Assembly: GCA_944389535.1 (NCBI GenBank)
Contig: CALXMS010000001.1
Coordinates: 103,202 to 167,201 of the forward strand
Direction of reading: 5' to 3'
DNA length: 64,000 bases
Origin: an uncultured Alphaproteobacteria bacterium
GTDB taxonomy: Bacteria > Pseudomonadota > Alphaproteobacteria > Rs-D84
Positions within the stretch are counted from its first letter, which is position 1, and each line of letters begins with the position of its first letter. The notes beneath the pieces are model-generated. The model made no database searches and was not told where the DNA came from. It saw only the letters and a program-made list of their open reading frames with translations. Positions 10,202 to 59,148 of this stretch are shown in pieces. The translations under genes and the position numbers were made by a program.

Positions 10202-12214
10202 TTAATTTTTATTCTGCTTTGCATACAATGATATTGTGCATATACAAGAAAACAATAGAATAATTATCATCCACGTATCTCGACCAATACTTCTATATGG
10301 CGTTACATGGGCACCGAAAATTACACCATCCATATAACCTGATAAACCGACAGGAATTTCTGACATTACCGCACCATCGGCAGAAATAAATGCACTAATT
10401 CCTGAATAATTTGCTCTAATAATCGGTAAACCAGATTCAATAGCATAACGTCGAACCATGTCTAGATGCTGATAAGTTCCTGGCGTATTACCAAACCAAG
10501 TATCGTTTGTTATATTTATAACAGCATCGGGGTGTTCTCCTTTGGGAACCAAAGAGTCAGAAAAAATAATTTCATAACATATTGCCGGTGCAAATTTAAA
10601 AGAATGGTCCTTTATATTCATATTTATAATTTCTGGTCCGAAGCCCTTTTCTAATTGTCCAGGCGTCGGAATAATATCACCAAAAGGTCTATATTCACCA
10701 AAAGGAACTAAATGAGATTTACTGTATACTTTTTGAATTTCTCCGTTTGACGTTGATACTATCATTGAATTATACATATTATTATCAGAATAAGTCGTTG
10801 CTCCAATAATAACATTATTATTTAATACCTCCGCCAAAGGCATATCATCTCCTTTTAAAACAACAAAAGGATATGATGTTTCTGGAAAAACGATTAAATC
10901 GGGAGCCCCTGTCGAAGAAGCCAAATCTATTAAAACTCTTACATTTTCTGTGGCATTTTGTATTGCTTCTTCTCTAGAATGTGTCGCTTTTTGCACTGCG
11001 CTGCGCGCTGGTTGAACAACCCTTATGATGGGGCTAGTACTTGTGATCTGTTTAGATTTTTTGACATTAATATAACCATAAGTCGATCCAATAAAAGCTA
11101 AAACAAGAAATATTATAAACGTTACCCAGCCTATTTTGCTTTTACGTAAATTCACTAATTCAATGATTGACGCAATTAATCCCAAAACAACAAAAGAAGC
11201 ACCTAACGCGCCCCATAAAGACATAGAATTACTCAACAATTGTGACGGCATAAGAATGTTAGCAATTGGATTCCATGGAAATCCTGTTAACAGCCATTCT
11301 CTGAACCATAATATAAGCACCCATGTTGCAGCAAATAAAAACGCCCTACATGCTGGAAAAGTACGCACACGCATCACCACGACAAAGGGTATGGAAAAAA
11401 CAACCCCTCCTAATAATGCTATTCCTAATAATGCCGGTATAGTCCATATCGCGAATTGAGCAGTCAGTTCCGGAACAACATAAATAGAGTTTACTACCCA
11501 CCAAAACATAGCAAGCGCATATGCTGCGCTAAATGGCAAAATTCTTAAAAAAGCTTTTAGTGTGGTTATATTATGCGTTACGTTTATAGATAACTTATAA
11601 GCGGCAGCAACGGCTATCAAAGTTGCCCACCAAATATGAAACGGGGCAAAACCTAATGCTGCAATTCCCCCTAACAAGGCCATAATTATATACTGCCATA
11701 TAGAATTTTCTTTTATTTTGAAACGTTTTAACCATAAAAATATTTTGTTTCCGGGACAACACGATAAATCGCTGCATGCGTTAGATTCCGCTTTATAGGG
11801 ATTTTTTATACCAATGTTTTTTAAAATATTTATTTCTTTGTTTTCCATTATTTTTGCGTCTTTGTCCCTAATATGGTCATACCCTTGTAAATGCAATACA
11901 CCGTGAACAATCATATGCGCTGCATGATCTTCAAATGATATATTTTCATCCTTGCATTCACGTAAAACTGTATCGAAAGAAATATAAATATCTCCTAAAA
12001 GAATATCATCATCTAATTCAAACGATAACACGTTAGTTGGTTTATCTATATTGCGGTATGTTTTATTTAATTGGTGAATTTTTGCATCATTAGTTAATAC
12101 AATAGATACCTCAGCGTCTTTACCGACATGTAAAGCCGCTGCATTTGCTATTTTATTAAAATCAATCTTGTATTTACGCCAACGTTCATCGTCATAATTT
12201 ATATAAATTTTCAT
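10202..12214 (-). CDS. ybeY/lnt: Fusion ORF: N-terminal endoribonuclease YbeY domain joined to apolipoprotein N-acyltransferase Lnt
   Basis: The first ~140 aa carry the YbeY zinc-binding HGVLHLQGYDH motif. The remainder has the Lnt multi-TM N-terminus and a C-terminal CN-hydrolase domain (PETSYPF ... ICYEIIF). One uninterrupted 670-aa frame covers both. The two are usually separate genes in a phoH-ybeY-corC-lnt operon. Confidence 0.75.
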   Translation of the reverse strand: MKIYINYDDERWRKYKIDFNKIANAAALHVGKDAEVSIVLTNDAKIHQLNKTYRNIDKPTNVLSFELDDDILLGDIYISFDTVLRECKDENISFEDHAAHMIVHGVLHLQGYDHIRDKDAKIMENKEINILKNIGIKNPYKAESNACSDLSCCPGNKIFLWLKRFKIKENSIWQYIIMALLGGIAALGFAPFHIWWATLIAVAAAYKLSINVTHNITTLKAFLRILPFSAAYALAMFWWVVNSIYVVPELTAQFAIWTIPALLGIALLGGVVFSIPFVVVMRVRTFPACRAFLFAATWVLILWFREWLLTGFPWNPIANILMPSQLLSNSMSLWGALGASFVVLGLIASIIELVNLRKSKIGWVTFIIFLVLAFIGSTYGYINVKKSKQITSTSPIIRVVQPARSAVQKATHSREEAIQNATENVRVLIDLASSTGAPDLIVFPETSYPFVVLKGDDMPLAEVLNNNVIIGATTYSDNNMYNSMIVSTSNGEIQKVYSKSHLVPFGEYRPFGDIIPTPGQLEKGFGPEIINMNIKDHSFKFAPAICYEIIFSDSLVPKGEHPDAVINITNDTWFGNTPGTYQHLDMVRRYAIESGLPIIRANYSGISAFISADGAVMSEIPVGLSGYMDGVIFGAHVTPYRSIGRDTWMIIILLFSCICTISLYAKQNKN

Positions 12215-12231
12215 AATCCATTACCTATGTA

Positions 12232-14157
12232 TTAATCTAAATTTTTATCAGATTTTGACAAAAGTTTTTCTTTAATCATATTATCTTTGTCTTGTTTTTT
12301 TATATTCTTTGCGGCATTAAAAAATGCGGCTGTTTTATCGGAATAAATATTATTAATTCTGTCCACATCTTTATTTACAGTGACATTGCCATTTGCAACA
12401 GACAATTTATAATTAGCCAAAGCCTTTTTAAAATCTCCTAGCATTTCATATGCAAATCCGGCATTATATTGCGCCGCGGCATACTGACTTTTATCTCCTA
12501 TGCGATGCAAAATTTCTCTGGCCTGCGCAATGGCCTCTTCATATCTACCTAAATGGTTATACGTTGCAGCTAAATCATTATGTAATAACGCGTTATTTGG
12601 ATACTGCACCAACATTTTCTCAAATTGTGTTGCTGCCCCAAGATAATCTTTTTTAGTATATGCAGCTATAGCATTATTGTATTGTTCGTCATAACCAATA
12701 GTATACGTTTTAGCCATAACTCTTTCTTGCGATTTAACAACTTTATAAAAGTTATCATTATTTAGTTCACACTTACCATTTTGACACAAAGCTAAAACAT
12801 CAGATGGTAGAAAGTCTGCCACTTTTTTCCAATGTCGTAAGCTTTCACCTTTAGCGTTTACCGGATTAAGTATCCATTGTTTAAATTTTATAAAAGTTTC
12901 TTTATTTACTTTTCTATTAGTTATATCACCGATAAAAAACGCTTCCTTCTTTTTTCCCATAACACAAAAAAATTCGTACATACCATTTACTGGACAGCTT
13001 AGCAACATTCCAGGTGTTATATCACCAGTTAATAATCCAGCCTCTAACCAACGGCGCCAATACAAACCTCTGCCGCCAGATAAAAAACCACCTAATTTAT
13101 TTGCTACAACATCTTTATCAGCCCCTTTTAACCAAAATTTCCCGAAAGACGTAGTATCTTGTATAGGGTATCGATCAAATATTTTTTGAACCAACGTATC
13201 AGGTACACCATAACCATACTTATCATATAAATTACGCAATTGTTCAAATCTTTCTTTATTATTTTTGTCTTCAGGATTTTCTATCAATTTAGAGTATGAG
13301 TTATATAAAATAGACCCCATACCCAAAACCTCACTTGTTGAAGTAATATTAACGTTTGTTTGTGAAACTTCATAACAATATAAAATGAAATAAGTTTCAC
13401 TTTCTTCCAAATGCCAACGAGCTAATTCATATGCCTCTTCTGTTGTCATCGGTTTAGTTTTCATGGTAACGCGACTGCCGTCTTTTAACATTGTTGAACC
13501 AAAGCCAATTGTAGGTATATTCTTTGAATCAAGATATGGTTTATGTAGCCCTGTTTGTGGATCGACATGAACACCTTCTTTTGCAATTAAATCCGCAATA
13601 AGAAAAGGCGTTATTGGTTGCACTTTATTTAGAAATGCTTTATAAGTACCACGCGCTTGTTTTTCTGCGGCGCGTTTTGTTCGATATTCTTTATATTGTT
13701 TAACCGCGTCCGGGACATATTCTACACCTGCATAAATACTAAAAGACAACGCCGTTAAACCCAGCAACCATATAGCATGCGAGAAAGAATTCGGATTTGA
13801 CTTTATAAACGAAGGAACGAATTTAGTTTTACCGTCTTTATTTTTTTTCACCTTCATTTCTTGAATTTTATTTTCAATTTGCCGCATATATTTATTATCC
13901 ATTGTCAACCAACGCGCCAACGTAAGTAAAAACTGACTGCCTCCAGCTGCCAGCCATGCGGTTCCCTTTGCTAATCCCAAAAAACCTATTGCAGCATTAT
14001 CACGCAATTTTGGGTAACGTTCTTTAATTCCATCTTCATCTTTTTTACTGCGTTTATCACGAATATATTGTACAGGTTTCTTTTTTTCTATAAATTTACG
14101 TAAATTCGCTGCCACTTGTTCTGGTATGGCAACCTTTTCTCTAAATTTTTCTGACAT
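12232..14157 (-). CDS. Membrane-anchored protein with a GH24 (phage-type) lysozyme-like catalytic domain and C-terminal TPR repeats
   Basis: An N-terminal hydrophobic segment (AIGFLGLAKGTAWLAAGG / WLLGLTALSFSIYAGV) precedes the central LIADLIAKEGVHVDPQTGLHKPYLDSKNIPTIGFGSTM...MTTEEAYELARWHLEE. This fits the GH24 E...D-x5-T(IGxG) catalytic pattern and the downstream tEEAe.LL..dL helix. The C-terminus has three or more TPR-like repeats (YNNAIAAYTKKDYLGAATQFEKML... YNAGFAYEMLGDFKKALANYKLSV). Confidence 0.5.
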   Translation of the reverse strand: MSEKFREKVAIPEQVAANLRKFIEKKKPVQYIRDKRSKKDEDGIKERYPKLRDNAAIGFLGLAKGTAWLAAGGSQFLLTLARWLTMDNKYMRQIENKIQEMKVKKNKDGKTKFVPSFIKSNPNSFSHAIWLLGLTALSFSIYAGVEYVPDAVKQYKEYRTKRAAEKQARGTYKAFLNKVQPITPFLIADLIAKEGVHVDPQTGLHKPYLDSKNIPTIGFGSTMLKDGSRVTMKTKPMTTEEAYELARWHLEESETYFILYCYEVSQTNVNITSTSEVLGMGSILYNSYSKLIENPEDKNNKERFEQLRNLYDKYGYGVPDTLVQKIFDRYPIQDTTSFGKFWLKGADKDVVANKLGGFLSGGRGLYWRRWLEAGLLTGDITPGMLLSCPVNGMYEFFCVMGKKKEAFFIGDITNRKVNKETFIKFKQWILNPVNAKGESLRHWKKVADFLPSDVLALCQNGKCELNNDNFYKVVKSQERVMAKTYTIGYDEQYNNAIAAYTKKDYLGAATQFEKMLVQYPNNALLHNDLAATYNHLGRYEEAIAQAREILHRIGDKSQYAAAQYNAGFAYEMLGDFKKALANYKLSVANGNVTVNKDVDRINNIYSDKTAAFFNAAKNIKKQDKDNMIKEKLLSKSDKNLD

Positions 14158-28752: not shown

Positions 28753-29832
28753 TTGATTGGAATAGATAATATGAGACTGAAACCAAAAATCTTAACACGA
28801 TTTTTAATGAGACGCTTTTTCTATGGCGTTGGTTTGGTTATGTTGGTTGTATGCGGTATAATAATGGCCGTTACTTTTGTTGAACGACTGCCGTCAAACC
28901 CGACTGCCATGGCCGCTTTTATAGATTCTTGGCGGCGCTTACTAGAATATTTCCCGATGTTTCTTCCAATGGCAATATTTATGGGTACTTTACTTGCATC
29001 GTATAATCTTACAAAATCTAGTGAAAATATAATAATTGCTAGTGCTGGATTATCCCCGTTTCAGATAGCTCGTCCATCTTTAATTGGTGCCACAATAATC
29101 GGGATATTTGCCACAACAATTATAAATCCTTATTCGGTTGATTTAAATTCAAAAGACATAACACCAGATCATCTTGTATTAATAGACGATGAAATCTGGT
29201 TACGCGAATCGTCTGACAATGGTTTTTTAACGATGAATGCAAAAAACATGCATAAATCTGGCAACATATTACTTTTTGATGACGCAACAATATATGTACA
29301 AAATACAAATTTTAAATTGGAACAGCGTGTTCAGGCGGATACGGTCAAACTATCTGATGCAGGGCTTAGCGCAAGCAAAGCAACTACTTGGGACAACAAA
29401 GGGGTTCCATCCAGAACAGACTGGCATATGGATACGCTATTAACCCCACAAACGGTACTTGATCGCTATTTACAACCTGACCAAATTTCATTCTGGGAAT
29501 TACCACACTTTATAAAAAAGATGCAAGAAATAGGCGTTCCTGTACGTGGTCACCTGGTACAATTTTGGACGTTATTGTTTTTACCTTTAACGTTGGTATC
29601 AATGGCAACTTTAGGCGTTGCTTTTTCTCAGACGCGCCAACGTCGTAATTATAGTTTTGGTATAAAGTTTGGCATCGGTATTTTAACGTGCTTTGCAGTA
29701 TATTTTCTAATAAACATGTTTAACGCATTAGGTGCGACTGGCGTATTTCCACCGATTTTAGCAATTGTTGCCCCACCGTTAATAATCATTGCCGCTGCGG
29801 GCGTATTCATAACAACATTTGACACCATATAA
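28753..29832 (+). CDS. LPS export ABC permease LptF/LptG (YjgP/YjgQ family)
   Basis: 359 aa. Has an N-terminal 3-TM bundle, a periplasmic beta-jellyroll region and 3 C-terminal TMs. The start RFLMRRFFYGVGLVMLVV is typical of the family. Divergent from greA. Confidence 0.75.
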   Translation: MIGIDNMRLKPKILTRFLMRRFFYGVGLVMLVVCGIIMAVTFVERLPSNPTAMAAFIDSWRRLLEYFPMFLPMAIFMGTLLASYNLTKSSENIIIASAGLSPFQIARPSLIGATIIGIFATTIINPYSVDLNSKDITPDHLVLIDDEIWLRESSDNGFLTMNAKNMHKSGNILLFDDATIYVQNTNFKLEQRVQADTVKLSDAGLSASKATTWDNKGVPSRTDWHMDTLLTPQTVLDRYLQPDQISFWELPHFIKKMQEIGVPVRGHLVQFWTLLFLPLTLVSMATLGVAFSQTRQRRNYSFGIKFGIGILTCFAVYFLINMFNALGATGVFPPILAIVAPPLIIIAAAGVFITTFDTI

Positions 29833-29843
29833 TGGGGGATAAA

Positions 29844-29975
29844 ATGCCTTTACGAAAAAGAAATACAAAAAGAAAGCAAATAATTATTTGGACTTTGGTT
29901 ATTGTATTAATAATATTGATGATAATATCATTCCCTGCAACGCAGAATGTTACTGAAATTGTGTTATATCAATGA
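29844..29975 (+). CDS. Small hypothetical membrane protein (43 aa) overlapping the xerD start; not in the ORF track
   Basis: MPLRKRNTKRKQIIIWTLVIVLIILMIISFPATQNVTEIVLYQ has a basic N-terminus and one TM. It is preceded by a GGGGGA RBS, and its stop overlaps the xerD ATG (ATGA). Confidence 0.25.
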   Translation: MPLRKRNTKRKQIIIWTLVIVLIILMIISFPATQNVTEIVLYQ

Positions 29976-30838
29976 ATTATATAGATGTTTTTTTAGAGGC
30001 TTTATCTGCAGAAAAAGGACGTAGCAAAAAAACATTAGAAAGTTACGCCAGTGATTTACATCATGCCGATGAAATTATTCCTAGTGGATTAAATGGGGCG
30101 TCTGCAAAAGATATACAAAATTATTTGTCTGGTTTACCGGATAAACCATCATCAATTGCTAGGAAAGCCAGCGCAATACGCGGTTTTTATAAATTTTTAA
30201 TGTTAGAAAAAATAATTTCTGAAAATCCCGCTGCTAATATAGAATTACCTAAACGCAATAGATCCTTACCAAAATTTCTATCAGTTGAAGAAATAGAACT
30301 GATCATATCTTCTGCCGGCGACACAAAAAATTCTACTCGACTTAGGGCAATGTTAGAACTTGTGTATGCATCTGGTCTTCGTGTATCAGAATTATGTGAA
30401 TTACCAATGACCGCAAACCTTGGCGATAAATTATTAATTCATGGTAAGGGGGCCAAAGAACGCATCGTTCCAATGCATGAAAGGGCTCAACATGCATTAC
30501 AGAAATGGTTAAACATACGAGGTAACGATAAATCTAAATATATATTTCCATCATCTGGGAAAACCGGCCATATAACTCGTGATGGTTTTTTCAAAATATT
30601 AAAAAAGTGTGCCGTACAGGCCGGAATTGATCCACATAGAGTAAGCCCCCATGTTTTACGACATTCTTTTGCGTCTCATTTATTAGCAGGTGGTGCTAAT
30701 TTACGTGCAATACAAACAATGCTTGGACACGAAGACATTTCTACGACACAAATATATACTCACGTACTGCCAGAAAAGTTAAAAGAAACGGTACAGATGC
30801 ATCATCCATTGGGTCAGCATGGGGAAAATAAAAAATGA
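29972..30838 (+). CDS. xerD: Site-specific tyrosine recombinase XerD
   Basis: The C-terminal catalytic region RHSFASHLLAGGANLRAIQTMLGHEDISTTQIYTHV (R..HxxR...Y) and the XerD-type tail ...MHHP are present. Length 288 aa. It is embedded among housekeeping genes with no phage genes nearby. Confidence 0.85.
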   Translation: MNYIDVFLEALSAEKGRSKKTLESYASDLHHADEIIPSGLNGASAKDIQNYLSGLPDKPSSIARKASAIRGFYKFLMLEKIISENPAANIELPKRNRSLPKFLSVEEIELIISSAGDTKNSTRLRAMLELVYASGLRVSELCELPMTANLGDKLLIHGKGAKERIVPMHERAQHALQKWLNIRGNDKSKYIFPSSGKTGHITRDGFFKILKKCAVQAGIDPHRVSPHVLRHSFASHLLAGGANLRAIQTMLGHEDISTTQIYTHVLPEKLKETVQMHHPLGQHGENKK

Positions 30839-33833: not shown

Positions 33834-33857
33834 AAAATCCCGCAAAAGCGGGATTTT
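33834..33857. terminator. Bidirectional rho-independent terminator between convergent serS(+) and a hypothetical(-) gene
   Basis: AAAATCCCGC-aaaa-GCGGGATTTT is a perfect 10-bp palindromic hairpin with A/T runs on both sides. Confidence 0.6.
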
Positions 33858-34392
33858 AATGTTGCAACTGATAATATATTTTCTTCAGCGGTCGTAATAA
33901 AAAATTCGTCTTATATAAATCCACCATTTTTTTTGACTGCTCTGCCATAGTTATTAATTTTTCTGCGCTATACGTTAAAGTTCTTATAGAAACCATATCT
34001 TTTTTTTCGTAATTATTTTCCCAATTTTGTATTTCCGCACAAAAATTATAATATTGATCTATTATCTCGCCACTCATAACGTCTAGAACACGCTTTAAAA
34101 TTATATCTTTCGGTTCATCTATGATATACAAAGCGTATTTTGATTCTATGCCATTGTTTTCCAACACTCGTTTTATTCTTACGCTTTTCTCATGTTGATT
34201 ACGCTTAGAAAAGTATAAAGACGGTTTTTTAGATAAATCCTTCATATAAACCAATGCTCTGGCAGCAGAAATCCGCTGTTTATTAGACATATTTGCCCAA
34301 TGAGAAGAAACCTGAGCTTTTGCCAAAATATAAAAATTGCTTAATCCCGACTTAATAATGTCATTTATATCTTTTTCTTTTATTTCACTCAT
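33856..34392 (-). CDS. Hypothetical protein (ORFan)
   Basis: 178 aa, Lys-rich, with no recognisable motifs. Sits between serS and typA. Confidence 0.4.
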   Translation of the reverse strand: MSEIKEKDINDIIKSGLSNFYILAKAQVSSHWANMSNKQRISAARALVYMKDLSKKPSLYFSKRNQHEKSVRIKRVLENNGIESKYALYIIDEPKDIILKRVLDVMSGEIIDQYYNFCAEIQNWENNYEKKDMVSIRTLTYSAEKLITMAEQSKKMVDLYKTNFLLRPLKKIYYQLQH

Positions 34393-34548: not shown

Positions 34549-36387
34549 ATGTCTATGAAGATTAGAAATATTGCAATTATTGCGCACGTTGATCACGGAA
34601 AAACGACACTTGTTGACAATATGTTAAAACAAGCCGGTACGTTTCGTGAAAACGAGCGTGTTGCCGAACGAGTTATGGATAGCGGTGATATTGAGCGTGA
34701 ACGTGGAATAACAATATCAGCAAAACCAACATCAATTCAATGGGGTGAATATAAAATTAACATTGTTGATACACCGGGTCACGCTGATTTTGGTGGCGAG
34801 GTGGAACGTATTTTATCCATGGTTGATGGTGTGGTGCTTTTAGTTGATGCGGCAGAGGGTCCATTACCACAGACAAAATTCGTTTTATCTAAAGCTCTTA
34901 AATTAGGTTTAAGACCTATTGTATGTATAAATAAGGTAGACCGCAGTGACGCCCGTCCAGACGAAGTTTTAACAGAAACATTTGACCTATTTGATAAGTT
35001 AGGTGCAACCGATTCCCAACTAGACTTTCCGTATCTATATGCGGTTGGTCGTGATGGATGGGCTGTAAGAAATTTAAATGACGAACATAAAGATTTAACA
35101 CCATTATTTCAATTAATAATCGACCATGTTCCGGCCCCAGATTGTAACGGCAGTCGCTGTCAAATTGATGCACCTTTTTCTATGCTTGCAACGACACTGG
35201 AAGCAGATCCATATGTCGGCAGAATTCTAACCGGAAAAATTGAATCTGGTACTGTTCGTGTTGGTCAGACGGTTAAAGCCATAAATATGAAGGGGGAATT
35301 CATAGAAAACGCAAAAATAACAAAGATCATTGAACATCGTGGTATCGAAAAAGCATCTTTAGAATCGGCATCTGCAGGTGACATAGTGGTCATAGCAGGC
35401 TTTTCAAAAGCAACCGTGGCAGATACACTCTGTGCACCAGAAGTGACAGAACCGATTCCTGCGATGCCTATTGACCCACCTACCCTGACTATGACATTTT
35501 TTGTTAATACTTCACCGTTGGCGGGAAAATCCGGTAAAAAATTAACGTCACGTATGATTGGTGAACGCTTGTTTAAAGAAGCGGAGACAAACATTGCTTT
35601 ACGCGTTACGCAAAGCGCAAATAATGAATCATTTGAAGTTTCTGGACGTGGTGAATTACAGTTGGGGATTTTAATAGAAACTATGCGTCGTGAAGGTTTT
35701 GAACTAAGTGTTTCTCGTCCGCGTGTCGTGATGCAAGACGGCCCCAACGGCGAAAAATTAGAACCGATCGAAGAAGTGGTTATCGACGTTGATGATGAAT
35801 TCAGCGGTGTTGTAATCGAAAAAATGACAAAACGTAAAGCCACTATTACGGAAATGAAGGCTTCTGGTAACGGTAAAACTCGTATAGTATTTTCTGCGCC
35901 TTCTCGTGGTTTAATTGGATATTTATCTGAATTTCGTACAGACACCCGTGGTACAGGCGTTATGAATCGCGTTTTTTCTGGTTACGAAGAATATCGTGGT
36001 CCTATAACCCAGTATCGACCTGGCGTACTGGTATCAATGGAAAATGGTGTCACATCAACTTATGCATTACACAATTTGGAACCTCGCGGTGTATTATTTG
36101 TCGGACCACAAACAGAAGTTTATTCCGGTATGATAATCGGAGAACATAGTAAAGAAAATGATTTGGAAGTAAACCCAGTAAAAGGTAAAGAACTGACGAA
36201 TGTTCGTTCTGTTACAGCCGATGAAAAATTATTTTTGGCGCCACCGCGTAAAATATCCTTAGAAGAAGCGTTATCTTATATTCAAGACGATGAACTGGTT
36301 GAAGTTACACCGGCTACAATTCGTTTACGCAAAAAAGAATTGGATAGCAATATAAGAAAAAAGATACGGAAAAACAGTGAAATCTAA
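34549..36387 (+). CDS. typA: Translational GTPase TypA/BipA
   Basis: Has the G1 motif IRNIAIIAHVDHGKTTLVD and DTPGHADF. EF-G-like domains II-V and a BipA-specific C-terminal domain are present. Length 612 aa. Confidence 0.9.
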   Translation: MSMKIRNIAIIAHVDHGKTTLVDNMLKQAGTFRENERVAERVMDSGDIERERGITISAKPTSIQWGEYKINIVDTPGHADFGGEVERILSMVDGVVLLVDAAEGPLPQTKFVLSKALKLGLRPIVCINKVDRSDARPDEVLTETFDLFDKLGATDSQLDFPYLYAVGRDGWAVRNLNDEHKDLTPLFQLIIDHVPAPDCNGSRCQIDAPFSMLATTLEADPYVGRILTGKIESGTVRVGQTVKAINMKGEFIENAKITKIIEHRGIEKASLESASAGDIVVIAGFSKATVADTLCAPEVTEPIPAMPIDPPTLTMTFFVNTSPLAGKSGKKLTSRMIGERLFKEAETNIALRVTQSANNESFEVSGRGELQLGILIETMRREGFELSVSRPRVVMQDGPNGEKLEPIEEVVIDVDDEFSGVVIEKMTKRKATITEMKASGNGKTRIVFSAPSRGLIGYLSEFRTDTRGTGVMNRVFSGYEEYRGPITQYRPGVLVSMENGVTSTYALHNLEPRGVLFVGPQTEVYSGMIIGEHSKENDLEVNPVKGKELTNVRSVTADEKLFLAPPRKISLEEALSYIQDDELVEVTPATIRLRKKELDSNIRKKIRKNSEI

Positions 36388-37225
36388 ACGACTATTTTTA
36401 ATTGCTGGATATAGTGCGGTAAAAAAGATTGACGCGTCACTAATTTATATGCTCAAGTCATTGTCTTTTTGTGGAGACGTTATCTTAATGCTTGATAGCG
36501 ATATCTCTAAAGAAGAATTAGATAAAATTTCTTCTTATGTGATACATGTACATGCTTCGCGACATGGGGAATATGATTTTGGTTCTTATAAACGTGCATA
36601 TCAATACGCCAAAGATAAAAAGATACTAAAAGAATACGACTTTGTATATATGATAAACGATTCTGTATACGGCCCCATAAAAGATATTAAGCCATATTTA
36701 CAACAAATGGAATCTTTTGATGCCGACGCGTTCGGTTTAGTATGTAACCCAAATAAAGACCATCCACATATTCAATCTTGGTTTATAGGAATGCGTAAAA
36801 CTATATTTTTATCACGGTGGTTTGATGAATTCATAACGTCTGTTACTAAGCAACCTAATAAAGGGGCAATTACCCGTCTGTATGAACAGGGTTTTTCTAA
36901 ACTAGTAACTGAACATGGCGGCAATTGGCTGTGTATATATACAATTTCGGGACGTGGCATATATAATAATATCAAAAAATTATATAAACACGGTTTGCCT
37001 TTTATTAAGAAAGTCTCTTTTACGCGTCATAACGGTTCACTTGGGAAAGAAATATATTACGTTATGCGTCATATAAATAAAGAAGCAAGCACAGCAATTA
37101 TTAGTGGTGCAAAAACAACCTTTGGGGAAAAATATATAAGCTGGCTTTTAACGCGAAATCCTATTAAAATATTTTTAAGAAACATAAAATATTTTATAAA
37201 AAAATTGTTTAATGAGGGCTTATGA
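36377..37225 (+). CDS. Hypothetical polysaccharide-biosynthesis protein (possibly rhamnan-synthesis-F/glycosyltransferase-like)
   Basis: 282 aa. It overlaps the typA stop by 11 nt and its stop overlaps the next glycosyltransferase start. A weak motif resemblance (DFVYMINDSVYGP...SWFIGMRKTIF) to RgpF-type surface-polysaccharide enzymes is present. Confidence 0.35.
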   Translation: MKSKRLFLIAGYSAVKKIDASLIYMLKSLSFCGDVILMLDSDISKEELDKISSYVIHVHASRHGEYDFGSYKRAYQYAKDKKILKEYDFVYMINDSVYGPIKDIKPYLQQMESFDADAFGLVCNPNKDHPHIQSWFIGMRKTIFLSRWFDEFITSVTKQPNKGAITRLYEQGFSKLVTEHGGNWLCIYTISGRGIYNNIKKLYKHGLPFIKKVSFTRHNGSLGKEIYYVMRHINKEASTAIISGAKTTFGEKYISWLLTRNPIKIFLRNIKYFIKKLFNEGL

Positions 37226-38073
37226 AAAAAACACCTACAAAAACATTAAAAAAAATTGCGGCCATAACTATGGCACGAAACGACGAATTTTTTCTATCGC
37301 GATGGATCAAATATTATGGTGACGCAATTGGTAAAGAAAATCTTTATATATATCTTGACGGAGAAGATCAAAAAATACCGGCAAATGCCGGAACGGCTAA
37401 TATACAAAAACTGCCCCATATAGATATGTCACGGACAGCGGGTGATAAATATCGTATAGCCAAGTTATCAAAATTAGCTAATGATTTGTTAAAATCTTAT
37501 GACATTGTAATAGGATGCGATTGCGATGAATTTTTAATTGTGGACCCTGCTCTGAACAAATCATTATCTGAATATTTATCAGGTCTAAAAATCAACATAA
37601 GTGTATCTGGTCTGGGATTAGATGTGGGTCAAAATATAAATAAAGAAAAAACACTTAATCATAAAAAAACATTATTATCACAACGTGAATATGCGCTGCT
37701 ATCAACAAGATACACAAAACCTGTAATAATAAACCAACCAGTAAATTGGGGCAGCGGGTTTCATAGCATACGCGGTAAAAACTTTCATATTGATAAAAAT
37801 TTATATTTATTACATTTTGGTGCCGTCGATATGCAAATGTTATTAGACAAGGCGGCTTCTCGTGGTTCTGATTGGGTAAATCACCTACGCAGACGCGGTA
37901 ACGGTACAATAAATGCTGTAAGTCAATTACCAATACATACAGAAAAATGGTTAAAAATTGCTAGGATAATACAAACGTACGCGCGCCCTATATATGCATT
38001 AGACAAACCAGGAATGTTGGGATTAAAGCGCGTTGTAAAAATACCTTCACGATTTAAACAATCAAACGTATGA
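37222..38073 (+). CDS. Putative glycosyltransferase (GT2/GT92-like fold)
   Basis: The N-terminal AITMARNDEFFLSRWIKYYGDAIGKENLYIYLD resembles the nucleotide-sugar-binding start of GT2-like/GT92 enzymes (v.NEadii.eWl.yh). The DxD-like CDCDEF follows. Confidence 0.45.
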   Translation: MKKTPTKTLKKIAAITMARNDEFFLSRWIKYYGDAIGKENLYIYLDGEDQKIPANAGTANIQKLPHIDMSRTAGDKYRIAKLSKLANDLLKSYDIVIGCDCDEFLIVDPALNKSLSEYLSGLKINISVSGLGLDVGQNINKEKTLNHKKTLLSQREYALLSTRYTKPVIINQPVNWGSGFHSIRGKNFHIDKNLYLLHFGAVDMQMLLDKAASRGSDWVNHLRRRGNGTINAVSQLPIHTEKWLKIARIIQTYARPIYALDKPGMLGLKRVVKIPSRFKQSNV

Positions 38074-39204
38074 TTTTATAAGTTTTATAATTTGTTTTGA
38101 TATCTGACCCGCATCAAAACGTTTTAATCCATTATGCGCAATCTGTTTCATTTTATTTATTGGAACTTTTTTATTAAAAACTGCGTCCATACATTCTGCC
38201 AAAGCTTTTGCATCACCCGCTTCAAATAATAACCCACCCTTTCCTTCATATAAAATTTCATTTGGGCCATTTTTACAATCGGATGAAATATTTAATGTAT
38301 CAACAGCTGCTGCCTCTATCAAAACAGTTGGCAGTCCTTCACTTCTACTAGACAAAATGTTTGCCATGGATCCGCGCATATACCCGAACGGATTTGACAA
38401 AGCCCCTGTAAAAATAATTTGCTTGCTTGCAGATAATGATTTTGACATTTCTTCATAACGGATTCTATAACTTCCGTCACCAATGATATATAATTTTACG
38501 TCCGGTCGATCATTTTTATTCCAAAAAATATCAAAACCTTTTAATAAAGTTGAAATATCTTTATCCGCATATAAACGTGAAACGCAACAAAAATACCTTC
38601 CTTTTGGTATCGTGACATTTTTAACTTTCTGTATAACATGATTTATATCTATCGGATTATAAATACGAATGATTTTATTCGAATATTCTGGATATATTTT
38701 TTTAAATTCTGTAACAAAACCATCTGTTAATGTTATTAACTTGTCATAATTTTTCATATACTTTATATAATTTCCGCGTATGAAGTTATCTATTGACGAA
38801 TGCCACCAAATTAACTTCGTTTTTTGTAGTTTTCTAAATTCTGCATTAAATGAAAAATTATAATAATCAATGAACACATCAATATCATTATCATAATGAA
38901 AATTTATAAAATTACGACGTACATATCTATACACATCTCGACAAGCATGCTTAAATAAACGCCACAAAAAGAAATGTGGCAAATCTGTCCCTAACCATGA
39001 AGAAGGATACAAAGTAAAAAGTTTTACGTCAGGGTGCCCAGCGAACCAATCTAGATATACTTTCTCTTTTATTTTAGAATACGTTATAACAACAATTTCT
39101 AAATTTTTGTTTTCTAATAACTTTTCCATGGTTCGAATCATAACAGATTCAACCCCACCAATTTTCATGTCTCTTACACAAAAAGCGATTTTTATTTTTT
39201 TCAT
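38062..39204 (-). CDS. Glycosyltransferase family 4 (GT-B, RfaG-like)
   Basis: Has the C-terminal GT4 signature SRSEGLPTVLIEAAAVDTLNISSD (E-x7-E) and an N-terminal GT4-N-like domain. Length 380 aa. Confidence 0.75.
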   Translation of the reverse strand: MKKIKIAFCVRDMKIGGVESVMIRTMEKLLENKNLEIVVITYSKIKEKVYLDWFAGHPDVKLFTLYPSSWLGTDLPHFFLWRLFKHACRDVYRYVRRNFINFHYDNDIDVFIDYYNFSFNAEFRKLQKTKLIWWHSSIDNFIRGNYIKYMKNYDKLITLTDGFVTEFKKIYPEYSNKIIRIYNPIDINHVIQKVKNVTIPKGRYFCCVSRLYADKDISTLLKGFDIFWNKNDRPDVKLYIIGDGSYRIRYEEMSKSLSASKQIIFTGALSNPFGYMRGSMANILSSRSEGLPTVLIEAAAVDTLNISSDCKNGPNEILYEGKGGLLFEAGDAKALAECMDAVFNKKVPINKMKQIAHNGLKRFDAGQISKQIIKLIKSYV

Positions 39205-40226
39205 TTTTTACAAATCTTTATAAATCTACAAATTCTGCAACGTAAACAACGAGTACATTTTGTTGGCGGATTATCCAAAGCACCAATTTTTTCTAGTTCA
39301 CAAAAACGTTTACGTGCGGCTTCTAAGTCCGCGTTATTATCAAGATATTTTATTTTACGAAAAGCCCATTTTATAAAGAACCATTTAAATTTTCTTGTCC
39401 ACTGTTTCTTTTGATATTCTGTAGCTTTTTCTTTATATAATTTAAAAGCATTTTCTATACCATCACACAAACTGTGTAATATACGTAATTGCTTCGCAGA
39501 CAATACTATGCCGCCAAAATTAGGAACATAAAAATACAACGGCAAAGGCGCAATAGTTACTCGTGGATTTTTAAGCATAATTGCAGACCACCACGGGAAA
39601 TCTTCAAACAAAATTCCTTTTATAAACGGGGTATCTGCAATTAATTCACGCCTATATAAATTTTTCCACACTTGGCAATGTTTAATTAACCATTTACGTT
39701 TCGGATTAAACGCATTATGCGCACTTTCAGTAGCGTACGCATATACATCATCTGTAACTAATGTTTTTATATTTAACGGATCATATTTTTTATGTATTCG
39801 TGCCGGGACAACACTATCAGTATCCATACCTAGTTTATATCTTATCATTAATTGCGGACGATAAATTCTATCATACGTAAACGATACTATGTCAGACCCA
39901 TCACGAGTTGCTAAAAAATGAGAAATTTCCATAGTCTGCGGATGAATAAAATCATCGCTGTCTAAAAACAAAATAAAATCACCTTCTGCAACATGCATAC
40001 CGGCATTACGAGCATCTGATAAGCCACCATTTTCTTTCGTTACTATTTTAAACCTAGCGTCTTTTCTGGCATATTCTTTAAGTATAGCAGCGCTATTATC
40101 TGGACTTCCATCATTAACGCAAATGGCCTCCCAGTCAGAAAAAGTTTGATTTAAAACACTGTCTAAACATCTACGTAAATATTTTTCTACGTTGTATACA
40201 GGTATTATAACTGAAATAGACGGCAT
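39201..40226 (-). CDS. Glycosyltransferase family 2 with an unusual Cys/Arg-rich C-terminal tail
   Basis: Has the classic GT2 start SVIIPVYNVEKYLRRCLDSVLNQTF...NDGSPDNS...LDSDD (DxD). The tail is PPTKCTRCLRCRICRFIKICKK. Confidence 0.8.
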   Translation of the reverse strand: MPSISVIIPVYNVEKYLRRCLDSVLNQTFSDWEAICVNDGSPDNSAAILKEYARKDARFKIVTKENGGLSDARNAGMHVAEGDFILFLDSDDFIHPQTMEISHFLATRDGSDIVSFTYDRIYRPQLMIRYKLGMDTDSVVPARIHKKYDPLNIKTLVTDDVYAYATESAHNAFNPKRKWLIKHCQVWKNLYRRELIADTPFIKGILFEDFPWWSAIMLKNPRVTIAPLPLYFYVPNFGGIVLSAKQLRILHSLCDGIENAFKLYKEKATEYQKKQWTRKFKWFFIKWAFRKIKYLDNNADLEAARKRFCELEKIGALDNPPTKCTRCLRCRICRFIKICKK

Positions 40227-40243
40227 AAGATGTCCCCTAAGTT

Positions 40244-41152
40244 TTAGTTTTTATACATTTTATTTATCATAACATCAGCAAAACTTCCCTTTGGGGGATT
40301 CTTTGCTTGAGCATAAGTCGTTTTCTGAAAAAACGCCCCAGATGTTACTTCGTCAAAGGTTTTCTGATTAAACGGTTTATCTGCATACGACCACCACAGT
40401 GCATGTGTTGAATCTTGATCAATATGGGGCATTTGGGCAAAATATTTTTTTGCTCTTGGATCATTCATTACCAAGGTTTTAAATAATAATTGATGCATAA
40501 AATAATCAAAACTATGATTTTCATGTATCCAATAATCTAAAATCATCGCACGCCAAGCATCTAATAGATAAGCTCCTTTTCTTGCCCTAATGAAACAGTT
40601 CTGCATAAAGCTGTACGGACTTCCTACCTTTTTTCCTGCCATATATACAAAAAAATCCTCTTTTATAATCCAATCAGGAATAGAAGACGTGGCAAACCCT
40701 GTAGAATCCAACCATATCCCCCCATGTTCATACAATAGTTCTACACGACATATATCAGCAAAATGTGCGTTCTTTATTTTACCTTCACTACGTTTTTTCC
40801 AGATTATTTCTGGTAAAGTAATATATTCTTTCAACGTATTTTCATCTAATACAATTAATTCTTGCGTACAGTTTTTTCTAACACTACGAAAACACGCCTT
40901 GACCAAGTCAGGCGCGTTTTCTTCTCCTTGTAACCAGATCGTAAAAATCTTTTCGTTCTCATCATCTTTCTGAACAGGTCTTTCAACAACTGCGGCCGCA
41001 GCAGGTAAGTACCTTTTAAAATATCGCGGTATAGCCGTTGCTAAGACATCGCTACGAACTTCTCTACGTTTTTCTCGACCACGCCAAAACCAATTTAACA
41101 CATGTCCACGAATTATTACATCAGACATTGCGAAAAATCTTGCAATATTCAT
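40244..41152 (-). CDS. Capsular-polysaccharide-synthesis / DXD-sugar-binding glycosyltransferase (Caps_synth/Gly_transf_sug-like, GT32-type)
   Basis: IWLQGEENAP...ADICRVELLYEHGGIWLDSTGF matches the Gly_transf_sug/Caps_synth pattern (w.g.......y.sD..R..lLy.yGGiYlDtD). Confidence 0.55.
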   Translation of the reverse strand: MNIARFFAMSDVIIRGHVLNWFWRGREKRREVRSDVLATAIPRYFKRYLPAAAAVVERPVQKDDENEKIFTIWLQGEENAPDLVKACFRSVRKNCTQELIVLDENTLKEYITLPEIIWKKRSEGKIKNAHFADICRVELLYEHGGIWLDSTGFATSSIPDWIIKEDFFVYMAGKKVGSPYSFMQNCFIRARKGAYLLDAWRAMILDYWIHENHSFDYFMHQLLFKTLVMNDPRAKKYFAQMPHIDQDSTHALWWSYADKPFNQKTFDEVTSGAFFQKTTYAQAKNPPKGSFADVMINKMYKN

Positions 41153-41160
41153 AGTACCCC

Positions 41161-42231
41161 CTATTCTTGCACAACCTCATCTTCTTCAGCAGGACCAGTC
41201 GTCATTTCTTCTGCAATTCCCTGAGCTTTAGCCATAATTTTTTCTAACAATTCTTTTTGAACATCTTCATGTTCCTTTAACCATTGTCTTGCATTGGCCT
41301 CGCCCTGCCCCATACGTTCATCGTTATAGGAATAAAAACTACCCGCCTTTTCAATAAGGTCGTACTTTACACCCATATCTAAAATTTCGCTAATACGAGA
41401 AATTCCTTCGCCGTACATAATTTTAAAATCAACCGTACGGAAAGGTGGCGCAACTTTATTTTTTACAACCTTAACTCGTGTCTCATTTCCAACGATATTT
41501 TCTTTATCCTTAATCTGTCCTGTACGACGGATATCAAGACGTACAGAAGCATAAAACTTTAAAGCATTCCCACCCGATGTGGTTTCTGGATTACCAAACA
41601 TAACACCTATTTTCATACGGATTTGATTAATAAATATTAATAAGGTATTGCTACGCGATACAGAACCGGCCAATTTTTTTAAACTTTGTGACATAAGACG
41701 GGCAGTTGTACCGACAAACGAATCGCCGATATTTCCTTCTAATTCAGCTTTTGGAACCAGTGCTGCAACAGAATCAATTACTACCACGTCAACTGCACCC
41801 GACTTAATCAAAGTATCGGCAATTTCTAAGGCTTGTTCACCAGAATCGGGTTGAGATATAATTAAATTAGCGACATCTACCCCCAGTTTTTTTGCATAAC
41901 TTGGATCCAAAGCGTTTTCTGCATCTATGTAAGCACAGGTTCCGCCTTTTTTTTGCGCCTCTGCCACGGCATGTAACGCAAGCGTAGTTTTCCCAGAACT
42001 TTCGGGGCCATAAATTTCAACTATACGTCCACGCGGATATCCCCCTATTCCTAAAGCGATATCCAAACCCAAAGAACCTGACGAGATCGCCTCTATATTC
42101 TGTTGAGAGCCGTCCCCCATTTTCATAATTGCTTCTTTACCAAATTGCTTTTGAATTTGTGCCAACGCCGATTCCAGCGCCGGATTTTTTACTGCTCCTG
42201 CTGTTTCTTTTGCTACTTCTTTTTTTGCCAT
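41161..42231 (-). CDS. recA: Recombinase RecA
   Basis: The Walker A motif GPESSGKTT, the L1/L2 loops and the [22 protein letters not shown] segment are unmistakable. Length 356 aa. Confidence 0.95.
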
Positions 42232-42317: not shown

Positions 42318-43502
42318 TTACTTTTTGGCAAACACCAATAAAGCTGACAAACCTCCGATCAAAGCCGTTACAACCCATACAGCAGAAGTACCGCCAAATA
42401 TAGTTATACATGCAGCGCCTAATATTGGTGCAATTATATTAGGCAAATTGACACTTGTTCTAAACACACCGTAATACTTTGTTTGTTCTGATTTTTTTGC
42501 CGCATCAAAAAACAATAAATCATGTACAGATTCCATTAACGCACCAGACACTTGCCACATAACGAATATCGCCAACAAGGGATATCCTGTTACAAATGTT
42601 GCAAAAGCAGAAAAAACGGCGAACGAAGAAAAACCTATGAATAACCATTTTCTTTTACCGTAACGTCGAACAAGCTTTGCCATTATTTCTGACAATACCA
42701 AATAAGGAATAATACCAAGCGTTAAAACCCAACCCAAAACGTCTTTTGAAAAACCATTTTCTATAACGACGATCGGCACATATAAATATCTCATCGCCCG
42801 CAATGCATAATAGCCGAAATTTACAGCATATGCGCGCGGCATACCTTTCTTTTTAAAAAACGCCAATGTATTTTTCCATAAGAACCGAAAGGTTCTTCTT
42901 GGGCTGACTGGTTTTATTTGTTTATCTTCTTGAATAATTCTAAATAATTTGAATGCCATCCAACCAGCAAGATATATAAGTGCAGAAGCAAAAAAAGCAG
43001 CTCTATTATCAAATTGACTGGCCACCGCTACGGCTATCATCGGTGCAAACAAAGCACCAACGTTCATCCATAAATGATATCTAGAATTTAATCTGGCCAT
43101 ACCGATTTTTCCAGAGAAATCAGACATAAATAATGGTATAAGAACCCCGACAAGCGTTGCGGCAATTCCTGTGGTATAGTCTAATATGATAAAAGTACTT
43201 GGACGTATTGAAAAACTCATCATCGCATAACACACTGCCAGCATCAACATAGAAAAATAAAAAACGCGGACCTTTGAAAATCTACGAAATAATTCATTTG
43301 CGAACAAACCGACTATCATACAAAAAGCCGCATATATACCGACATAAATACCGACTGTTGCAGAACTCATAAAAATTTCTAACAACACAAGAGAGTATAC
43401 CGCATTATAAATACCATCTGCAAACCCGGTAAACAAACCTAGGTTTGCAAACGAAAACCCGCTAACACCGTTTTTTACAGAAATATATTTATCTTTTGCC
43501 AT
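42318..43502 (-). CDS. MFS transporter
   Basis: 394 aa with 12 predicted TMs and an MFS-like loop-2/3 motif region. Substrate unknown. Confidence 0.7.
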   Translation of the reverse strand: MAKDKYISVKNGVSGFSFANLGLFTGFADGIYNAVYSLVLLEIFMSSATVGIYVGIYAAFCMIVGLFANELFRRFSKVRVFYFSMLMLAVCYAMMSFSIRPSTFIILDYTTGIAATLVGVLIPLFMSDFSGKIGMARLNSRYHLWMNVGALFAPMIAVAVASQFDNRAAFFASALIYLAGWMAFKLFRIIQEDKQIKPVSPRRTFRFLWKNTLAFFKKKGMPRAYAVNFGYYALRAMRYLYVPIVVIENGFSKDVLGWVLTLGIIPYLVLSEIMAKLVRRYGKRKWLFIGFSSFAVFSAFATFVTGYPLLAIFVMWQVSGALMESVHDLLFFDAAKKSEQTKYYGVFRTSVNLPNIIAPILGAACITIFGGTSAVWVVTALIGGLSALLVFAKK

Positions 43503-43536
43503 ATCTTATATATTGTAACATAAAAATAGTTAAAAT

Positions 43537-43561
43537 AAAAATCCGCTATATGCGGATTTTT
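43537..43561 (-). terminator. Rho-independent terminator downstream of secB
   Basis: An AAATCCGC-atata-GCGGATTT hairpin is followed on the minus strand by TTATTTTAAC. Confidence 0.5.
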
Positions 43562-43574
43562 ATACTTATTTTTA

Positions 43575-44018
43575 TTACTTATTATTAGCAGGTGCTTGTT
43601 TTTGTCTGTCTTCATACAGTTTTTCAAAATCAACAGGTTGCATAACAAATGCAGGGAAACCTGATTCTGCTGTCATACGAGTAATTAAAGCGCGTACAGC
43701 CGGGAATAATAATGTCGGTACATTTATTAATAACGTACGTTTTTTTACTTCTTCGTCTTTTTCTTCTTCCATCTGTACCAAACCAGAATAAGTTGATTCA
43801 ATCATAAAAATAGATTTATCGCCATTATTTAATTTAGAATGAATTTTTGTAATTAAATCGACCATAAACAAATTATTTTCGGCGCCTTTGATCTGAATAT
43901 CTATATTTATTTCCATTTTTGCCTGTCCGTTATCATTTTTAAAAAACAATTCGGGAACATTGGGGCTTTCAAAAGAAAAATCTTTTAAGAACTGTGTAAT
44001 AATATTAAATTTTGCCAT
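43575..44018 (-). CDS. secB: Protein-export chaperone SecB
   Basis: 147 aa. The N-terminal FNIITQFLKDFSFESPNVPELF corresponds to the conserved SecB start (f.iqriY.KDiSFEaPnaP..F). The length and acidic C-terminus fit SecB. Confidence 0.7.
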   Translation of the reverse strand: MAKFNIITQFLKDFSFESPNVPELFFKNDNGQAKMEINIDIQIKGAENNLFMVDLITKIHSKLNNGDKSIFMIESTYSGLVQMEEEKDEEVKKRTLLINVPTLLFPAVRALITRMTAESGFPAFVMQPVDFEKLYEDRQKQAPANNK

Positions 44019-58979: not shown

Positions 58980-59066
58980 TGGTGGGAGTGGGTGGATTCG
59001 AACCACCTCAGGCTTAAGCCAACAGATTTACAGTCTGCCCCGGCTCTCCAACTCCGGCGCACGCCC
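58980..59066 (-). tRNA. tRNA-Tyr (anticodon GUA), type II with a long variable arm
   Basis: Reverse complement is GGGCGTGCGCCGGAGTTGGAGAGCCGGGGCAGACTGTAAATCTGTTGGCTTAAGCCTGAGGTGGTTCGAATCCACCCACTCCCACCA (87 nt). Has the anticodon loop CUGUAAA, a GGTGG/CCACC T-stem with TTCGAAT loop, a long variable hairpin and encoded CCA. One apparent C4.U69 acceptor mismatch and C8 may be reading errors of +/-1 nt. Confidence 0.6.
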
Positions 59067-59073
59067 AATCCCT

Positions 59074-59148
59074 TGGTGCGGGCAGCGGGAATCGAACCCG
59101 CATTTCAAGCTTGGAAGGCTTGCATACTAGCCTTTGTACTATGCCCGC
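59074..59148 (-). tRNA. tRNA-Gly (anticodon UCC)
   Basis: Reverse complement is GCGGGCATAGTACAAAGGCTAGTATGCAAGCCTTCCAAGCTTGAAATGCGGGTTCGATTCCCGCTGCCCGCACCA. Clean cloverleaf with U8, A9, anticodon loop CUUCCAA, a GCGGG/CCCGC T-stem with TTCGATT loop, a 7-bp acceptor stem and encoded CCA. Confidence 0.75.

Follow-up and report, generated by a model that had tools for sequence, protein, structure and literature searches.

The lipooligosaccharide (LOS) locus of Campylobacter jejuni carries variable gene classes within a heptosyltransferase frame running from waaC to waaF, often together with genes for sialic-acid synthesis. The lgt locus of Neisseria (lgtA-E), which directs synthesis of the lipooligosaccharide alpha-chain, consists of glycosyltransferase (GT) genes only, five of them in N. 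gonorrhoeae, and contains phase-variable poly-G tracts. O-antigen and capsule loci, such as those between galF and gnd in Enterobacteriaceae and between dexB and aliA in pneumococci, have conserved flanks around a hypervariable centre and are exchanged by homologous recombination in the flanks. Here we describe a locus of five GT genes (g1 to g5) that lies between typA and recA in a 64,000-nucleotide stretch of DNA (the window; contig CALXMS010000001.1 of GenBank assembly GCA_944389535.1) from an uncultured alphaproteobacterium, Candidatus (Ca.) Enterousia. Variable GT-only surface-glycan loci at a fixed site are already known as a type, and this one is previously undescribed. We read it as a genus-wide, vertically inherited, internally mosaic, GT-only surface-glycan locus of Ca. 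Enterousia that extends an LOS-type lipid A-core, a reading in which we place about as much belief as doubt.

Enterousia is the GTDB genus Rs-D84, in the family and order Rs-D84 of the Alphaproteobacteria (PMC8035907). The window is linked to named members of the genus by protein clusters at 90% identity or more: the g4 cluster includes Ca. Enterousia avicola, and the RecA cluster includes Ca. E. scatequi and E. onthequi. These bacteria, which have never been cultured, are found widely in gut metagenomes from animals and humans. Exact copies of the window proteins are present on as many as 12 metagenome contigs per protein (20 for g2), and single orthologue clusters span more than 100 contigs. 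A study from 2025 gives genome sizes of 0.75-1.0 Mb with a coding density of ~90% for Enterousia (PMC12306168), and a size below 1 Mb for Ca. Enterousia (PMC12306168, PMC8035907) bears out the reduced genome that the original prediction had proposed from the sequence. Its label "endosymbiont-type" does not suit the organism, which is represented by gut-lumen metagenome-assembled genomes whose coding density is high and whose recA/mutL/ruv/uvrB repair genes are complete; a partner-dependent lifestyle has been proposed as possible, not demonstrated (PMC12306168). The same study describes Rs-D84 genomes as lacking glucokinase, glucose-6-phosphate isomerase, sugar transporters, nucleotide synthesis and lipid synthesis and as rich in hypothetical membrane proteins, and makes no mention of lipopolysaccharide (LPS), glycosyltransferases or polysaccharides (PMC12306168). 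Published Rs-D84 genome reconstructions are silent on envelope glycans.

Organisation and conservation of the recA-typA interval

A six-frame list of open reading frames (ORFs) places five intact GT genes at 36377-41152, from typA to recA. The features of the locus and its flanks are as follows.

typA: 34549-36387, + strand, translational GTPase, left flank of the GT locus
g1: 36377-37225, + strand, 282 amino acids (aa), GTG start, RgpF-like GT-A glycosyltransferase, frame gene on the typA side
g2: 37222-38073, + strand, 283 aa, Glyco_tranf_2_4 GT-A glycosyltransferase, frame gene on the typA side
g3: 38062-39204, - strand, 380 aa, GT4 (GT-B, retaining-type) glycosyltransferase, in variable slot 1
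g4: 39201-40226, - strand, 341 aa, GT2 glycosyltransferase, frame gene on the recA side
g5: 40244-41152, - strand, 302 aa, Caps_synth (GT32-like) glycosyltransferase, frame gene immediately downstream of recA
recA: 41161-42231, - strand, right flank (TIGR02012, 540 bits)
Major facilitator superfamily (MFS) transporter gene: 42318-43502, - strand, PF07690 (116 bits), immediately upstream of recA
Convergent 3' overlap of g2 and g3: 38062-38073, both strands, 12 nucleotides (nt), TCAAACGTATGA, at variable slot 1
Mosaic tract in g4: 39738-39845, - strand, 108 bp, roughly residues 128-152

The genes are tightly packed. In the junction sequences typA and g1 overlap by 11 nt, and ATGA start/stop overlaps join g1 to g2 and g4 to g3. 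The g5-g4 spacer of 17 nt contains an AGGGGA Shine-Dalgarno sequence, and the 8 nt between the recA stop (41161) and the g5 start include the GGGG Shine-Dalgarno sequence of g5. The original prediction of five GT genes between typA and recA was reproduced exactly in the ORF map, and each of the tight junctions it listed, including the 12-nt overlap at 38062-38073, was confirmed in the sequence. Families were assigned with the curated gathering cut-offs of Pfam, with NCBIfam alongside, and all five proteins score over the Pfam cut-offs.

The same block is found in the relatives. A RecA-anchored scan with one genome per species gave at least one close relative among the matches listed (L001, RecA 94%), in which the same five genes stand in the same order from recA to typA. 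Four g1 homologues of 54-64% identity on long contigs (L087, L088, L089 and L090) all lie in this same block beside recA, and these loci too contain the five genes; the typA side is rearranged in L089, and L090 has two GT61 genes added between typA and g1. Because loci found through g1 bias the sample towards those with GTs, sampling was repeated through the MFS gene. Alignment of this gene with metagenome contigs gave 80 loci with an MFS identity of 53-89%, and the counts that follow are out of loci with enough sequence at that step. The MFS transporter, which has 12 transmembrane segments, is immediately upstream of recA in 55/55 loci and hence always linked to the GT locus; recA is followed by a g5 (Caps_synth) homologue in 50/50, and g5 by a g4-like GT2 gene in 43/43. 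Complete recA-typA intervals number 33 (28 MFS-anchored loci plus the window, L001, L087, L088 and L090), and all 33 contain a GT cluster. Wherever the arrangement could be scored, g5 and g4 lie on the recA side and g2 and g1 on the typA side, with the exception of L132, whose recA side is rearranged.

Variable slots, divergence and mosaicism

Gene content varies at two positions, which were scored in the 33 complete loci by ORF-level comparison and by Pfam searches with the unmatched proteins. Slot 1 is the point where g2 and g3 converge, occupied here by g3. It holds a GT4 gene in 15 loci, a second GT2 (42-65% identical to g4) in ~10 and a 337-aa Stealth-family protein (CR1/CR2/CR4) in five; it is empty in two and differently arranged in one, and occasionally it also holds a NUDIX hydrolase. 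In L087-L090 the two genes at the g2/g3 junction overlap by up to 20 nt or stand up to 307 nt apart. Slot 2, at the g1-typA junction, is empty in 14 of the 33 loci, including the window; a ~400-aa GT61 occupies it in 13, and GT92-like, GT2, RgpF-like or other genes in the remaining six. The slot-2 protein of L092, for example, matches PF01697 (GT92) with 73 bits. As a result of these differences the locus ranges from 4 to ~8 genes across relatives. Every gene in it codes for a GT or a glycan-modifying enzyme, and none of the 33 variants contains an initiating transferase, flippase, ATP-binding cassette (ABC) exporter, polymerase or ligase.

Slot 2 also bears on the relationship of the locus to typA. 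In the 28 metagenome loci, typA adjoins g1 (-11 to +98 nt) in 10, and slot-2 genes intervene in the other 18; since these genes are oriented opposite to both typA and g1, the typA-g1 overlap of the window is not a conserved feature.

The Stealth proteins (L106, at 13035-14048, and L114, L127, L134 and L145) are putative hexose-1-phosphotransferases, and their presence implies that the glycan of these relatives would contain a phosphodiester-linked sugar. A further lead, weak similarity of the L163 slot-2 protein to HtrL, whose gene adjoins the waa genes, was not used, as the match scores 22.1 against a Pfam cut-off of 24.1 and the alignment with E. coli HtrL covers 72 aa only.

Divergence was measured as the mean pairwise protein p-distance over 30 complete loci.

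recA: 0.058
typA: 0.087
MFS: 0.31
g4: 0.30
g5: 0.31
g2: 0.33
g1: 0.48

The frame GTs thus evolve at about the pace of the MFS transporter, with g1 faster and the fastest member. Distances of g4 and g1 track those of MFS (Spearman 0.61 and 0.63), whereas those of g5 and g2 are decoupled from it (0.08 and 0.10, vs 0.50-0.53 among housekeeping genes), a pattern which indicates that allele classes of g5 and g2 are probably distributed independently of the flanks.

Mosaicism is also visible between closely related loci. In L095 and L096, recA, g5 and g4 are 97.5-98.5% identical at the nucleotide level, whereas g2 falls to 86.8% and g1 to 78.7%, and only L095 has a GT61 gene; this drop locates a recombination breakpoint within the locus. 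In the species of the window, the 39738-39845 tract of g4 has 26 nt differences (10 aa) between the window and L081 on one side and five other contigs on the other, and elsewhere in 7.6 kb these contigs have 0-4 differing sites per gene. The tract looks like a short gene-conversion tract, and the loop that it encodes is also the most variable among orthologues between species. Phase variation was considered and found no support: the repeats of the locus are limited to runs of A8 and C6 and a pair of (TA)4 repeats, and six same-species contigs show no length variation.

The enzymes and their acceptor

The families RgpF-like, GT4, GT2 and Caps_synth/DXD, proposed earlier for g1, g3, g4 and g5, all correspond to Pfam matches above cut-off. 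The g1 protein matches PF05045 (RgpF) with 68.6 bits against a gathering cut-off of 25, over the N-terminal model positions 1-222 of 503 only. Its orthologues carry the same precomputed RgpF assignment and are all 282 aa long, without the full two-part RgpF architecture of ~500 aa. The AlphaFold2 model of g1 (predicted local distance difference test score, pLDDT, 95) is a single GT-A domain with a helical tail, whose best solved matches are distant (AfGfsA, TarP and RmlT, template modelling score <=0.45). The motif N94-D95-S96 is unchanged across 39 orthologues, and homologues of g1 form 925 clusters.

For g2, the earlier label GT2/GT92-like stands in part: PF13704 (Glyco_tranf_2_4) matches with 42.5 bits against 27.5, and the GT92 family PF01697 gives no match at E<=0.01. 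The DxD motif D100-C101-D102 is unchanged across 24 orthologues, and homologues form 2966 clusters. The AlphaFold2 model is confident only for residues ~10-130, the GT-A nucleotide-binding half, and is poor past residue ~130 (pLDDT 64) because the alignment held only sequences of 76-82% identity; its weak GT-A fold matches were used solely to support a GT-A N-terminal half.

The g3 protein matches PF00534 (Glycos_transf_1) with 94 bits against 26.4 and has a C-terminal E-x7-E motif (E289GLPTVLIE297). Its closest solved relatives are PglH/WlaC (1.6e-12) and WaaB (2.4e-11), and it is 24% identical to E. coli WaaB over 264 aa (E 5e-15). The g4 protein matches PF00535 (Glycos_transf_2) with 128 bits against 23.3, carries the DxD motif D89-S-D91 within LDSDDF and has many solved GT2 relatives; its alignment with E. 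coli WaaH (31% identity over 236 aa, E 8e-30) reaches beyond the generic GT2 half. The g4 C-terminus (39204-39260) is a basic tail rich in Cys and Arg, CTRCLRCRICRFIKICKK, of which orthologues partly keep RxLRCKICxFIK..C.K, and this tail could be a membrane-association or metal-binding element.

The g5 protein matches PF05704 (Caps_synth) with 215 bits against 24.5, over model positions 11-266 of 278, and PF04488 (Gly_transf_sug, the DXD sugar-binding region) with 27.4 bits against 23. The position where a DxD motif would be expected reads D149-S-T (GGIWLDSTGF). Judged from their motifs, the predicted catalytic signatures of g1, g2, g3 and g4 are intact. Sequence searches of the PDB with g1, g2 and g5 gave no meaningful match. 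No hydrophobic stretch reaches the threshold for a transmembrane segment in any of the five GTs; all five are net basic (K+R > D+E) and have amphipathic C-termini.

Pathway genes that would normally accompany such enzymes were sought around the locus. In Pfam and NCBIfam scans of the ~50 window ORFs, no gene for sugar-nucleotide precursors, a flippase, a polymerase or a ligase was found within detection limits, and the unassigned window ORFs include no polytopic membrane protein that might be a divergent Wzx, Wzy or WaaL. Export, initiation and precursor genes are likewise absent from the adjoining 10 kb on either side of the window in the parent 294-kb scaffold, and rml genes from all 84 kb examined. 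The claim that the window lacks precursor, flippase and polymerase genes therefore extends, within the same detection limits, across ~84 kb. The window and the flanking 20 kb encode envelope machinery that includes an LptF/G permease, Lnt, LolCDE, LolA and an AsmA-like protein.

The locus has a fixed frame, in which recA, g5 and g4 on one strand converge on typA, g1 and g2 on the other. In the mechanism that we propose, the five GTs would be peripherally bound to the inner membrane at its cytoplasmic face and would transfer sugars one by one from nucleotide-sugar donors onto a lipid-anchored acceptor begun elsewhere. The four frame enzymes would then make the conserved part of the glycan, and slot genes together with allele recombination would produce species- or strain-specific outer structures. 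For an LOS-type product, the general MsbA/Lpt route should suffice for export, as it does with the Neisseria lgt and Campylobacter LOS loci.

On the recA side, expression is probably driven from recA as the head of a recA-g5-g4-g3 transcription unit, because the 8-nt spacer between recA and g5 has no terminator-like site. In relatives this gap is 14-159 nt (median ~53), apart from 972 nt in L132. A consensus scan likewise found no terminator-like site at typA/g1 or at the g2/g3 convergence. Neither scan rose above expectation from shuffled sequence (12 terminator-like sites vs 7.4 +/- 3.4 expected; 26 promoter sites vs 44.9), and they were used solely to note the terminator-free recA/g5 and typA/g1 junctions. 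Coupling to the SOS response was also considered and rejected, as the 34 GTTC-N7-GTTC boxes agree with the 35 expected by chance and the region upstream of recA has none.

The acceptor is most likely the lipid A-core, with an LOS-type product, because no initiating transferase, flippase, polymerase or ligase gene occurs in any variant of the locus and the Lpt export system is kept. A GT-only locus would then need no dedicated export, which suits a genome below 1 Mb, and the alignment of g4 with WaaH and the presence of WaaB among the nearest solved relatives of g3 favour the same acceptor. The earlier idea that the enzymes extend an existing glycan fits the absence of export, initiation and precursor genes here and in the 33 variants. 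Several points weigh against this assignment. What is known of the RgpF, Caps_synth and Stealth families comes more from capsule-type polymers or those linked to undecaprenyl phosphate (Und-P) than from LPS cores, and the similarities to WaaH, WaaB and PglH are of the size usual between GT2 or GT4 enzymes that serve different pathways. The ~84 kb read, about 9% of a ~0.9-Mb genome, contain no lpx, kdtA, msbA or heptosyltransferase gene. Saturation or old discrete allele classes, not recent exchange, could explain part of the low correlation between the flanks and g5 or g2, and co-transcription with typA is not conserved, as opposite-strand slot-2 genes split typA from g1 in 18 of 28 loci. Furthermore, the source of nucleotide-sugar donors is unexplained in a lineage reported to lack sugar activation and uptake (PMC12306168).

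Other explanations differ in the origin of the block or in its acceptor. The original prediction took it for a five-gene accessory island inserted between typA and recA. A recent insertion would agree with the GC content of the five genes (0.30-0.36, slightly under the window mean of 0.372), with GT proteins that are 50-85% conserved vs 91-97% for RecA and TypA, and with the differing gene content of the two slots. The block nevertheless sits at the same site in all relatives sampled, including MFS-anchored loci picked regardless of GT content, so that its presence in the typA-recA interval of relatives is essentially universal for the locus as a whole, and its frame GTs diverge at the MFS rate (p-distance 0.30-0.33 vs 0.31). 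GC content at third codon positions is ordinary (0.225-0.281 vs a window mean of 0.278 +/- 0.034), as is codon-usage distance, with g2 a mild outlier (0.203 vs 0.136 +/- 0.028). No direct repeats bracket the block, and neither edge has an integrase, a tRNA or any intergenic room. Recent horizontal transfer was rejected on the ordinary composition and the lack of bordering repeats, and a recent insertion of all five genes is very improbable. What survives of this claim is that the slot genes are accessory: the g3 position and the g1-typA junction vary between species, and the locus itself is core.

The same mosaic locus may instead build or decorate an Und-P-linked polymer (O-antigen, capsule or exopolysaccharide), with the genes for initiation, export, polymerization and ligation elsewhere, which we judge less likely than the LOS-type reading. 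To judge by their Pfam descriptions and their usual setting, RgpF (g1), Caps_synth (g5) and the Stealth proteins that five relatives have in slot 1 typically belong to capsule or Und-P-linked polymers. The best solved relative of g3, PglH, acts on a glycan linked to undecaprenyl pyrophosphate, and the ~9% of the genome inspected leaves room for such genes. Genes for initiation, export, polymerization and ligation are normally clustered with the GTs, however, and all 33 variants lack them; a genome below 1 Mb (PMC12306168) is also less likely to retain a full Wzx/Wzy or ABC pathway together with WaaL. It is unlikely that the enzymes glycosylate quite other targets, either surface or membrane proteins or diacylglycerol to yield glycolipids. 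Such targets are suggested by weak NCBIfam similarity of g3 to the SdgA/SdgB adhesin O-glycosyltransferases and to monoglucosyl-diacylglycerol synthase, and by the many hypothetical membrane proteins and missing lipid synthesis of Rs-D84 (PMC12306168). Those matches reach only 25-57 bits against cut-offs of 400-800, no target protein or oligosaccharyltransferase gene is linked to the locus, and four to eight GT families per locus suggest a multi-sugar chain, not a single modification.

Extension of a lipid A-core thus stays our preferred reading. A bolder and rather doubtful proposal is that the locus would be the main determinant of cell-surface identity, with roles in attaching the cell to a partner or host and in evading phages. 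Scavenged nucleotide sugars or sugar phosphates would supply it, perhaps taken up through the linked MFS transporter, and transcripts reading through from recA would express its conserved half.

Chromosomal setting and comparison with known loci

The rest of the window consists of ordinary chromosomal housekeeping genes. Among them are thrS, gltX, a YbeY-Lnt fusion, ftsK, secDF, mutL, greA, the LptF/G permease gene (28753-29832), a gene for an XerC/D-type recombinase (29972-30838) that is syntenic in relatives, serS, secB, mltA, ruvA, mnmE, argS and lolCDE. The flanking typA matches TIGR01394 with 910 bits and is 87-96% identical in aa sequence across relatives. Two tRNAs (58980-59148) are the only Rfam matches in the window.

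Several further observations concern the transcription and neighbourhood of the locus. In the interval between secB and the MFS gene, at 43521-43577, a strong hairpin with a 12-bp stem (ATAAAAATCCGC/GCGGATTTTTAT) is likely to be a bidirectional terminator that marks the upstream end of an MFS-recA-GT unit. Antisense within g2, at 37378-37391 on the - strand and ~670 nt past the end of g3, a GC hairpin is followed by a T-run (CCGGCATTTGCCGG TATTTTTT); this site might stop read-through from the recA side, and it may equally be a chance match, given 12 terminator-like sites where 7.4 are expected. Between serS and typA lies a 178-aa orphan gene (33856-34392, - strand) with no Pfam or NCBIfam match. 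It is 31% identical to its counterpart in the closest species (L001) and has no tblastn match in L087 or L088, where an ORF of 138-159 aa takes its position; to judge by these comparisons, the orphan is evolving very fast. In the Rhodobacteraceae loci L035, L036, L063, L009, L040, L058 and L069, recA and typA are convergent neighbours with alaS between them (918 aa and Pfam-confirmed in L035), so the two genes may have been neighbours before the GT locus arose.

Unusual gene structures are also present at some distance from the GT genes. At 10202-12214 (- strand) one 670-aa ORF joins a YbeY endoribonuclease to an apolipoprotein N-acyltransferase (LNT_N + CN_hydrolase); this apparent gene fusion is called as a single gene on the parent scaffold (L172) as well. 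Another apparent fusion, a 597-aa protein with FtsA-type domains and a ribulose-phosphate 3-epimerase domain, lies ~2.9 kb past the 3' end of the window (L173, 5313-7106, - strand). In L089, a gene for a type IV secretion coupling protein (T4SS-DNA_transf/TrwB/TraG; 1-1518) adjoins ftsK ~7 kb from the GT locus.

The locus is notable mainly for its retention and diversification in a very small genome without an evident route to activated sugars. A genome of ~900 genes still devotes 4 to 8 of them, at one fixed site, to diversifying what would be a surface glycan, which implies strong selection on surface identity by phages, host immunity or partner recognition. It also sharpens a puzzle, namely the origin of nucleotide-sugar donors in an organism for which pathways of sugar uptake and activation are reported to be missing. 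In practical terms, the fixed recA and typA flanks provide a handle for typing metagenomes, much as serotype loci do.

Among known systems, the E. coli waa (rfa) cluster offers individual enzymes to compare, since g4 aligns with WaaH and g3 with WaaB. This likeness is limited: the NCBIfam scores (129 vs 423 and 88 vs 385) are far below the equivalog cut-offs, and in contrast to that cluster no waaA, waaC/F/Q, kinase or waaL gene lies in or near the Enterousia locus. The streptococcal rgp cluster shares with it the RgpF family match and GT-A fold of g1. Assignment to an rgp-type rhamnan cluster fails because g1 has the N-terminal RgpF domain only and no rmlABCD genes or RgpC/D ABC transporter are linked to it; RgpG is also missing from the locus, and the host is diderm. 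The galF-gnd and dexB-aliA loci resemble it in their fixed site, conserved edges, variable middle, exchange through homologous recombination in the flanks and GTs that evolve faster than the housekeeping neighbours, and differ in having wzx/wzy or ABC exporters, initiating transferases and sugar-nucleotide genes, which are absent from the 33 Enterousia variants.

The two LOS loci introduced at the outset come closer. Like the Neisseria lgt locus, the Enterousia locus is compact and GT-only, without flippase, polymerase or ligase, and combines strain-variable content with internal recombination. It differs in its position between recA and typA, its convergent transcription, its other GT families and its longest tracts (A8 and C6), and the lipid A-core on which the lgt product is built is for Enterousia the probable acceptor. 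With the C. jejuni LOS locus it shares conserved frame genes around a variable GT centre, recombination mosaics and a gut bacterium as host; in Enterousia, by contrast, the frame is made up of four GTs that belong to other families, housekeeping genes form the outer flanks and precursor genes are absent. By analogy with C. jejuni, its role is likely to be surface antigenic diversity. In both function and organisation, the nearest analogues would be the GT-only, recombining LOS loci of Neisseria and C. jejuni, with the O-antigen and capsule loci as looser ones.

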